46,158 bases of DNA, from contig JAVCCJ010000069.1 of the NCBI GenBank assembly GCA_030765585.1, positions 1 through 46,158 of the forward strand. The letters run 5' to 3'. Shown piece by piece: positions 18,001 to 21,000 of this stretch. The stretch's first letter is position 1. Every line of letters begins with the position of its first letter. Source of the stretch: Candidatus Zapsychrus exili (GTDB lineage Bacteria > Omnitrophota > Gorgyraeia > Zapsychrales > Zapsychraceae). Position numbers: made by a program.

Positions 18001-21000
18001 TGAAAAATCACTACATCCAAGCGCTCTATGCGCTTTAAGTGCTTGTTCTTTAATCGTATCTGCAGTGTTCACTGAAATCTCTGCAGGCACAATATAATTT
18101 GTCATACCTTCCTTATATTTTGCAGCAAAATCAAAAAAATCTCTTTTTGTAGAGATTTCAACAATCGGAAGAGCGATATCTCCTAAAACTCCTACGGTTA
18201 TTTCTCTTCCCTCAATAAAATCTTCAACCAAAGCTCTATTTGAATACTCCCAGGCTAAATTCAACGCATCAGTTAATTGACTCTTTTCAGTTACTTTGCT
18301 TATTCCTATACTTGAGCCTTCAGACGAAGGTTTCACCATACAAGGGAAAACATTCCATTGCCTCAATATTTCTTCTTCCATCAGACAATCATCTTTAGAC
18401 AAGCTAATATATTTAGGAATAGGAATACCTTCTTTCTTAAATATATCTTGTGATAATTCTTTATCAAACGCTATACAAGACGCCTCTTTAGATGAACCAA
18501 CATAACAAATATCTAAATTATCAAGAATTCCCTGTATTTTACCATCTTCTCCAAGTTTTCCATGAAGAGCAATAAAACTTAAATCTATATTAGAATCTAA
18601 TATATTTTTTTCTATTTCACTATCAATGCTGCTTGTAATATCTAAGGCTAAGCAATCACATCCTTCTTCTTTTAATGCTTCATAAATTGCTTTTCCTGAC
18701 TTTAAAGATATGTCTCTCTCCGAAGAATATCCTCCCATAAGAACACCAATTTTTCCAAATTTATCAATATTATTACTCATTGTCTGCCTAACTAGAAACA
18801 ACTTCCTGTTTAATTAAAAATTTCTTTCTATTCACAAATTCTTTTGAAATATTTGTTATGTCTCCTGCACCAAGTGTCATAACGATATCACCTTCTTCTG
18901 CAATATCAATCAAACGCTCTATAATATCATCTTTTTTTAAGTAAGTAGCATTTGGATTATTTTCTTTGATTGCATCAACTAACTTTTCAGATGTAATCCC
19001 ATCAATTGAACTCTCACTCGCCGCATATATATCTGTAACAATTAATTGATCACAATCATAAAAGCTTGTCTTAAATTCATCAAATAAAAATTTTGTCCTA
19101 GAATATCTATGAGGCTGAAAAACAACAATTAACTTATTTTGTTTTAAATTATTTGCTGTTTTTAACGTTTCTTTTATTTCTGTTGGATGATGACCATAAT
19201 CATCGACAATTTTAATGCCACCTATATCTGCTATAAGTTCAAAACGCCTTGAAACTCCAGAGAAGCTATTAAAACTAGAGCTTATTGTGTCAAAATCTAT
19301 TTCCAAACTTAAACCTAAAGAAATACAAGCCAAAGCATTAAGTATGTTATGCCTGCCGGGAGTTCTTAAAACAACTCTTCCTAAATCTTCAGCTTCATAC
19401 ACACAATTAAAGCTGGAAGAGAAATTATCAAATTCTATATTGTTTGCATAAACATCACAATCGTTACAAAATCCATATGTCTTATATGTGCGTCCACTTG
19501 CTTTAAGAAGAGTCATCAAATTTTTATCTTCGCCAAACGCAATAATAAGCCCATCATCTTTTGTTTTATCAATAAAATTCCTATAGGCATCTAATACGCT
19601 ATTAAAATCTTTATAATAATCTACATGTTCAAAATCAACATTTGTAATAATTGAAAAGTCTGGAATAAATTTAAGGAACGATCCATCGCTTTCATCTACC
19701 TCTGATACAAAATATTTTCCTTCACCAAGTCTTGCATTAGATGATATTTGATTGATTATACCTCCGACTGCAATTGTCGGTTTTAAATCAGCTTCAATAA
19801 GCAAGTTTGATATCATCGACGATGTTGTTGTCTTGCCGTGTGCACCAGCAACAGTAATTGCAATATGATCTTTCATCAAATCAGCTAATAACTCTGCTCT
19901 TTGTTTGATATCAATACCTCTTTGTTTTGCTTCTAGTAACTCAACATTATCGTCTCTAATAGCAGAAGAAAAAATAACCGAATCAGCCCCTTCAATGTTT
20001 TTTGCATCATGTCCAATAAAAATAGCTGCGCCTTTAGATTTTAACTTATCTATCATGCTATTCTCTCTGACATCAGAACCACTTACAGCGTAGCCCTTGT
20101 CAATAAGAAGCACTGCAAGCGCCCCCATACCTATTCCACCAATACCAATAAAATGACAATGTTTCATTTTCTTTCTAAATAATTTAACCAAGCTTTATTA
20201 AGTCTTTTGAGATTATTAAATCTAGGATAAATAGATTCTAAAGTCCATTCAAAAGGACGACCTTTTTCTAACGCTCTGCAAAATCTAACAAATTTTAACT
20301 TACCTAAATCATTAATCATATAATTTACTATACTCGCAGATTCTGCATAAAAAAGATTTATAGTAGCCTGGTCTGTCTTTCTATACAATTTTAAATTTGT
20401 AAGTTCGTCTAGCGGTATAAATCTCTCATCATCTATTGCCTCTTTTACAGCCTTATGTGCGCCCCACCTTCTTGCTTTTTCCTGATACATTGCAATACCT
20501 TCTTCAAACCACTGCGGAGCCTCTGCTTTAAATCCTACAAACTCTCTAAATATAATATGACCTAATTCATGAGGAAGAACTGAATCAAAGAAACCATGCG
20601 CTGCAGGAAAAGTACGAATAGTTTTTGATTTAGCAAAAGCTAAACCATGCGACCACGGAGCACGCGTTGCAGCCTTTTTATAATCATCGGCGTCATTATA
20701 AATATAAATTTTTGCTCTTTCGTCCCAAGTCCAACCTTTATAACGAACAAAACCTAAATTTTTTGAGATCTCATCATAATACTCTTCTGCTGCCTCTTCT
20801 ACCGCATAAACAAACTCTTCAGGAGCTTCTTTATAATAAATAATAAAATGTCTTTTCTTGTATTCTTTCCAAACTCCTTTTGCAAAAGAAAATTTGCCTA
20901 TAAAAAATAATAATAAAACGATACATATTAATAAGATTTTCTTTTTCATTTTACAAGTCCAATAATTTCCTTAGCCAAGTTATCTGCTGCATCAGAAAAA

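Follow-up and report, generated by a model that had tools for sequence, protein, structure and literature searches.

A predicted exported gluzincin between murG and murC of FtsZ-less Omnitrophota is better read as an accessory protease of the envelope than as a daughter-cell separation enzyme

The murG–murC interval of the dcw cluster

The stretch of DNA analysed here (the window, 46,158 nucleotides) derives from a genome of the Omnitrophota, Candidatus Zapsychrus exili, which is 96.25% complete. An open reading frame on the minus strand at 20164..20949 encodes a 261-aa protein and is flanked by murG (20946..21950, minus strand, with its actual start at 21950) and murC (18788..20191, minus strand). 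The start of the peptidase gene and the stop of murG share four bases (ATGA at 20946-20949), and its stop shares another four with a murC ATG (ATGA at 20164-20167), the ATG at 20167 being the likely start of murC. The surrounding genes form a cluster for division and the cell wall (dcw) in the order mraZ, rsmH, ftsL-like, ftsI, murE, murF, mraY, murD, ftsW, murG, peptidase, murC, ddl, ftsQ, ftsA, all on the minus strand. The genes from mraZ to ftsW (21957..31922) were assigned from sequence and order, and ftsI by Pfam. Downstream, ddl (17800..18801) follows murC with no murB between them in the window, ftsQ occupies 17079..17846, and ftsA (15827..17071) is the final gene of the cluster, with no ftsZ after it. 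The top sigma-70-like promoter match of the region (11/12) lies upstream of mraZ at 32030..32058 on the minus strand; the scan as a whole returned 81 sites against 80.9 in shuffled sequences, and thus no excess.

Codon 8 of murG (21929) is an in-frame TGA within a GGTGGH-type motif of the assembly. It is probably an assembly error or a variant, since a contig of another run, X2 (one contig, depth 3.6), has glycine at this position. Read-through of TGA as a sense codon was ruled out for murG, given the glycine in run X2 and the use of TGA as the stop of both murG and the peptidase gene. Compared with five relatives, the product of murG is about 27 residues shorter in its N-terminal domain (around 21830). 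The rsmH gene is split over two reading frames (30512-31412, minus strand; 103 aa and 198 aa), and no indel was found in the compared contigs. On the plus strand, facing ftsA, a membrane-like ORF of 115 aa at 15468-15815 is kept in 9 of the 11 regions of the order that were compared and has no Pfam family above cut-off.

Enzyme class, fold and export

The 261-aa product matches PF13485 (Peptidase_MA_2) with 59 bits against a cut-off of 32.4 (E 7.3e-16). No other Pfam family was found at E≤0.1, the catalytic domains of Amidase_3, Amidase_2, M23, NlpC/P60 and SpoIID included. Of 1397 candidates in a protein search, 766 were relatives; those with a name among the 120 matches listed are Candidatus Omnitrophota and bear the NCBI name 'peptidase MA family metallohydrolase', and the neighbours in the Atlas are Omnitrophota PF13485 clusters. 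The sole NCBIfam match, flagellinolysin, scored 21 bits where 205 are required and was rejected. The leader (20881..20949, minus strand, approximately residues 1-23) is of Sec/SPI type as judged by eye, with a basic N-terminus, a hydrophobic core and an S-F-A end. Leaders of relatives from all three clades described below look similar by eye, and a reading by eye of 89 N-termini revealed no conserved lipobox Cys at the leader end. The initial annotation of an exported peptidase with an intact zinc site between murG and murC is borne out by these data: the reading frame, the PF13485 match, the hydrophobic leader and the motif LPHELGHIIF are all present in the translated gene, with export and activity as predictions.

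A structure model built from an alignment of 70 close relatives (pLDDT 92) places the HExxH motif, H127-E128-L-G-H131, inside a helix spanning residues 120-138, with H127, H131 and E150 as predicted zinc ligands and E128 as the catalytic residue. H127, E128, H131, E150, Y201, W73 and W99 are invariant in 89/89 genomic copies compared; broken down by clade, 57/57 dcw, 24/24 T2SS and 8/8 giant-adjacent copies keep the zinc ligands, the catalytic Glu and the Tyr unchanged. When the peptidase was queried as a single sequence against solved structures no match was returned at E≤10. A profile of 111 diverse relatives aligned the HExxH motif, the Glu 18 residues further on and the later Tyr with puromycin-sensitive aminopeptidase (E 1.9e-4), E150 and Y201 falling on the Glu of the M1 NEG motif and on the catalytic Tyr (HELAH, NEG and Y in M1 enzymes). 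By these sequence and model characters the protein is a member of Peptidase_MA_2 and of the gluzincin clan MA(E), with an HExxH helix, a downstream Glu ligand and a Tyr. The fold matches, the invariant zinc and catalytic residues and the leaders without lipobox suggest that it is a soluble, exported and probably active gluzincin.

The best fold match of the model is the peptidase domain of M9 collagenases (7wss and 4ar8, Z 18.8 and 15.4), the Grimontia enzyme aligning with Z 18.8 and rmsd 3.1 over 219 residues, and Foldseek likewise recovered the clostridial collagenase peptidase domain (E 1.9e-6). Identity to the collagenases is only 15-19%, residues 25-261 of the model match solely residues 373-619 of 7wss, and the 261-aa peptidase has no activator or binding domains. 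The other near folds are lugdulysin and the M1 aminopeptidases (puromycin-sensitive aminopeptidase, APN and LTA4H; Z 10-13). The latter share the HExxH-x18-E spacing and the catalytic Tyr; the peptidase differs from them, enzymes of 600-900 aa, in having no flanking domains, being a single domain of 261 aa against chains of 435-900 aa in the fold comparison. M1 exopeptidases bind the substrate amine through a GxMEN motif; the HMMER alignment to M1 begins at profile position 117, past the GxMEN region, and in the peptidase a conserved WSxG motif precedes the strand at residues 102-105. All nearest folds are enzymes that cut proteins or peptides. Domains of the LysM, SPOR or AMIN families were found neither in the peptidase nor in 17 longer relatives scanned. 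A search for fusions, weak in that 5 were found among 7998 candidates scored, gave TPR (2), PD40 with Omp85, PD40, LRR and thioredoxin as partners in longer relatives. Relative to such distant PF13485 members, the window peptidase is a single domain without TPR or Omp85 partners.

Distribution, losses and paralogues

The gene order is well conserved within the order to which the window genome belongs. Among the 30 best loci of the order, murC follows the peptidase gene in 30 and murG precedes it in 29, the contig ending just upstream in the remaining one. Close profile matches occur in 144/151 genomes of the order and 245/301 of the phylum, counts that mix paralogues. A dcw-type gene is present in about 127/151 order genomes (124 at E≤1e-85 and three contig-end fragments before murC); the neighbours were checked for 43 of these 127 and were those of a dcw cluster in every case, the others being assigned by score alone. 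The gene overlaps murG in 42/55 loci and murC in 35/50. Identity to the window copy is 51% for the peptidase and 51% for MurC over 10 loci of the order, compared with 37 for MurG and 34 for FtsQ, and over 17 loci of other orders it is 45% for the peptidase and 47% for MurC. FtsA, which is kept across the FtsZ-less Omnitrophota, is a fast-diverging protein, at 41% identity in the order and 30% in other orders.

Conversely, murG lies directly before murC, with clean absence of the peptidase, in 15/151 order genomes, while 9/151 were not judgeable. The 15 belong to two genera of family f1, to f12 and to f14, and some of their genera otherwise score as carriers; one genome, G073 (96% complete), has no member of the peptidase family whatsoever. 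Other orders of the class retain the dcw position at 18 loci, and every dcw copy examined comes from the window's class. Outside the order, murG adjoins murC without a peptidase in 8/8 genomes checked, these having been chosen because they gave no dcw-type match. PF13485 was not detected in any of 14 control genomes. The earlier statement that this neighbourhood is typical of the order thus stands, whereas its restriction to the order must be relaxed in favour of the class. The proposal that the enzyme is a fixed part of the divisome is not supported: the gene is not kept wherever an FtsZ-less dcw cluster is kept, as the 15 order genomes and the 8 others demonstrate. Where it is retained, the dcw peptidase is under strong selection, yet it is dispensable.

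Two gene fusions were encountered during these comparisons. Six f14 genomes (loci L239, L241, L242, L245, L248 and L249), none of which has the dcw peptidase, encode MurC and Ddl together in a single open frame of 784-828 codons, and MurC-MurB fusions of ~760-770 aa, as reported for Verrucomicrobium, occur in G181 and G183 (loci L109/L110).

The dcw gene is one of three related types. In 60 fetched regions, 28 copies lie in dcw clusters, 24 between gspF and gspG-type pilin genes, and 8 next to a gene for a giant protein; these last follow the gene for a protein of 1900-2600+ aa and precede ATP synthase-like genes and gspE. Another 20 regions gave 11 T2SS-type, 7 giant-adjacent, 1 dcw and 1 other context. 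A locus scan found 78/80 copies adjoining gspF or gspG, a figure biased towards the T2SS copy because the first row of the query alignment was such a copy. The three contexts correspond to three sides of a tree, with SH-aLRT support of 86 (dcw), 99 (T2SS) and 99 (giant-adjacent), and two context changes suffice on that tree against 26.4 with shuffled labels. Residues specific to the dcw clade are P115 (52/57) and G119 (54/57). PF13485 at large is a family without known function, and against this background the Omnitrophota proteins resolve into three clades with fixed gene contexts. Since the T2SS clade spans several classes and the dcw clade is confined to part of one class, copying from the pilus locus would be the most economical scenario, and the dcw gene probably arose by duplication from the T2SS/pilus locus; the direction is read from a quick, midpoint-rooted tree of 67 rows (22 dcw rows of the order and the masked row L090 left out) and is accordingly tentative.

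The gspF-gspG locus is the 'symbiotic' F-type ATPase/type 4a pilus (T4aP) locus of Seymour et al. 2023 (PMC10066038), and the two paralogous clades lie inside it or just upstream. The words 'peptidase' and 'ftsZ' are absent from the main text of that paper. In the window genome this locus is found on contig C13 without its gspF-gspG peptidase. A role of the T2SS copy as stand-in for the prepilin peptidase was ruled out, A24 being present in 5/5 genomes. At several loci, a protein with a leader and a C-terminal membrane anchor (228 aa in L056:8797-9480, minus strand), with no family above cut-off, is encoded between a large surface protein and a peptidase of the third clade.

The pilus context raises the possibility that the enzyme is an operon passenger, that is, a protease secreted for feeding or for acting on host surfaces as T2SS cargo, the dcw copy merely borrowing growth-linked expression. 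Cargo is commonly encoded as a soluble, leader-bearing protease gene within the T2SS operon, and the copy between gspF and gspG fits this layout. The T2SS/pilus operons have also taken in unrelated genes (GGDEF proteins, response regulators, ATP synthase subunits), the locus carries a 'symbiotic' designation, and the dcw copy has been lost repeatedly. A mere passenger would not readily account for one exact dcw position with 4-base overlaps across several orders, for the residues specific to the dcw clade, or for a window genome that retains the dcw copy and has lost the gspF-gspG one. We consider this explanation unlikely.

Wall hydrolases and the role of the peptidase

FtsZ (PF00091) was not detected in any of 301 phylum genomes, while 13/14 controls were positive. 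Among the 151 order genomes one, G087, gave two tubulin/FtsZ matches on short contigs, which we would guess to be contamination. The absence of FtsZ from Omnitrophota is already published: Pende et al. 2021 (PMC8178401) name Omnitrophica among the phyla without FtsZ in the legend to a figure, the question having been left open by Rivas-Marin 2016 (PMC5147048), and a 2025 survey describes the dcw genes as highly conserved within the phylum (PMC12283558).

The window genome has no FtsZ, Amidase_3 or Transgly, and M23 occurs in it only within a frame of 9937 codons. The same inventory had been ascribed to these bacteria in general, and in that form it does not hold. AmiA-type Amidase_3 is present in 138/151 order genomes (88/90 of high quality), and an NlpD-like LysM-M23 lipoprotein in 142/151 (88/90 of high quality). 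The amidase gene is lipoprotein-like, and 10/10 loci show the arrangement secretin, amidase, murI, queD. In the window genome the secretin gene abuts murI on contig C63 (11322-12839) with no amidase between them, and on C30 (22829-25119) thiE and the gene after it are neighbours, with no NlpD-like gene between them. As these flanking genes adjoin inside contigs, an assembly gap was ruled out; both genes have been deleted, locally to this one genome. It carries SpoIID and a LysM-Amidase_2 lipoprotein (C77:33254-34081); with the latter present and the two other genes deleted, the probable module for cell separation has here undergone a natural exchange. SpoIID and MreB are present in 5/5 genomes, FtsX in 0/5, and Transgly in 1/5, inside a giant frame. 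Frames of 44,145 codons (G011:C1 near 401951-405241) and 74,522 codons (G063:C1 near 1145261-1148719) with M23 and Transgly domains correspond to known Omnitrophota giant proteins.

This inventory bears directly on the initial proposal that the peptidase is the main septum-splitting enzyme of a lineage without FtsZ and amidases. Its position in the dcw operon and the gene set of the window genome would agree with such a role. However, the amidase and the M23 lipoprotein that it was supposed to replace are found in nearly all relatives that carry the peptidase, and the peptidase itself is lost from 15 genomes of the order and absent from the 8 checked outside it. Amidase_3 is found in 56/121 genomes across the phylum and is nearly absent from the families f57 (1/43), f16 (0/6) and f20 (0/3), as well as f61, f62 and f64; in 5/5 genomes checked from such amidase-less lineages (G151, G157, G165, G170 and G217) no peptidase lies between murG and murC. 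Since the amidase-less lineages checked also do without it, the peptidase travels with the amidase and not in its place, and a function as amidase stand-in was ruled out. These six families keep their mur genes without FtsZ, Amidase_3 or, where checked, the dcw peptidase. Amidase_2 is the likelier stand-in, because it is commoner in genomes without Amidase_3 (6/13, against 22/138 with it; Fisher p 0.016, kin not being independent). Co-occurrence thus largely refutes the main-splitter proposal, which we regard as highly improbable, and the alternatives already named alongside it (SpoIID, LysM-Amidase_2 and protein processing) provide a better fit. The wall hydrolases reported at the septum of chlamydiae, PVC bacteria that divide without FtsZ, are AmiA, NlpD and SpoIID (PMC4083446, PMC6635528). 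All three families occur in this order, as separate genes located away from the dcw operon, and the peptidase is a member of none of them.

A less demanding variant is that of an accessory peptidoglycan peptidase, each copy opening or trimming the wall locally for the machine encoded by its operon, beside the amidase pathway: the divisome for the dcw copy, the secretin and pilus for the gspF-gspG copy. In two of the three clades the gene is coupled in translation to those of a trans-envelope machine, the conservation of the peptidase at the level of MurC suggests an unchanging substrate, and peptidoglycan is the sole structure that faces both the divisome and the pilus machine, a point that counts against a protein substrate. 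Control of the hydrolases also differs from that of E. coli, as FtsX was not found in any of the five genomes. A hint of a wall role comes from Amidase_2, which turns up more often in genomes that have lost the dcw copy (8/15) than in carriers (20/127); counted by genus to allow for kinship, the link is 4/9 against 17/70 others and not convincing. To our knowledge, no peptidoglycan hydrolase of clan MA has been described. The structural neighbours, moreover, all cut proteins or L-peptides, the wall-binding domains LysM, SPOR and AMIN are missing, and the C-terminal gluzincin of VgrG2b was negative on peptidoglycan (PMC6899460). Local wall cutting is accordingly rated as rather unlikely, and its broader form, in which one gluzincin family provides dedicated envelope-remodelling partners, a copy each for the FtsZ-less division and the pilus/secretion machines, that cut peptidoglycan peptides locally, is doubtful. 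If true, it would provide both a clan MA peptidoglycan hydrolase, none of which was found in the literature searched, and a first function for Peptidase_MA_2.

The reading that we tentatively favour, at a little short of an even chance, is that of an accessory endoprotease in the periplasm with envelope proteins as its targets, its gene probably copied from the pilus locus. A protein substrate is preferred because the fold neighbours cut proteins or peptides, the enzyme has no wall-binding domain, and VgrG2b C-ter gave the negative result on peptidoglycan. The latter, the C-terminal metallopeptidase of a Pseudomonas aeruginosa protein, is described as a periplasmic gluzincin that disturbs division with an effect at mid-cell, without peptidoglycan hydrolase activity, depleting membrane lipoproteins, its targets apparently being envelope proteins (PMC6899460). 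It differs in that it is delivered as an antibacterial effector and has an immunity gene, and the two are likened here by description alone. The wall-synthesis and division genes would then co-produce, via translational coupling, a soluble, single-domain, exported zinc endopeptidase, which would act in the periplasm in an accessory, non-essential capacity, where it might process or turn over enzymes of division and the wall, lipoproteins or surface proteins. It would probably descend from a protease encoded at the T2SS/type 4 pilus locus of Omnitrophota, through a duplicate that the dcw operon took up in part of one class. Septum splitting would be achieved more simply by the AmiA-type amidase, the NlpD-like protein and SpoIID in the order, and by LysM-Amidase_2 with SpoIID in the window genome. 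In combination, these observations fit a role of the dcw peptidase as an accessory envelope protease better than one as a daughter-cell separation enzyme.

No description of the dcw peptidase was found in the literature searched (Peptidase_MA_2, PF13485, dcw, Omnitrophota division and secretion, gluzincins and peptidoglycan), albeit gene maps in figures or supplements might label it, nor does the accessible text of two Omnitrophota preprints (10.1101/2023.11.21.568195 and 10.64898/2026.06.07.730766) describe the gene. What is new here is that the missing-amidase argument is refuted, that the gene has been lost repeatedly and that the three clades are linked. The results bear on how FtsZ-less Omnitrophota divide with FtsA and an intact dcw cluster retained: an attractive but wrong lead, the peptidase as a replacement for missing amidases, is removed, and attention is directed to a chlamydia-like set of AmiA, NlpD, SpoIID and MreB. 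The uncharacterised Peptidase_MA_2 family is now tied to two envelope machines, and a small, soluble, well-modelled enzyme together with natural loss lineages offers a handle on its function.
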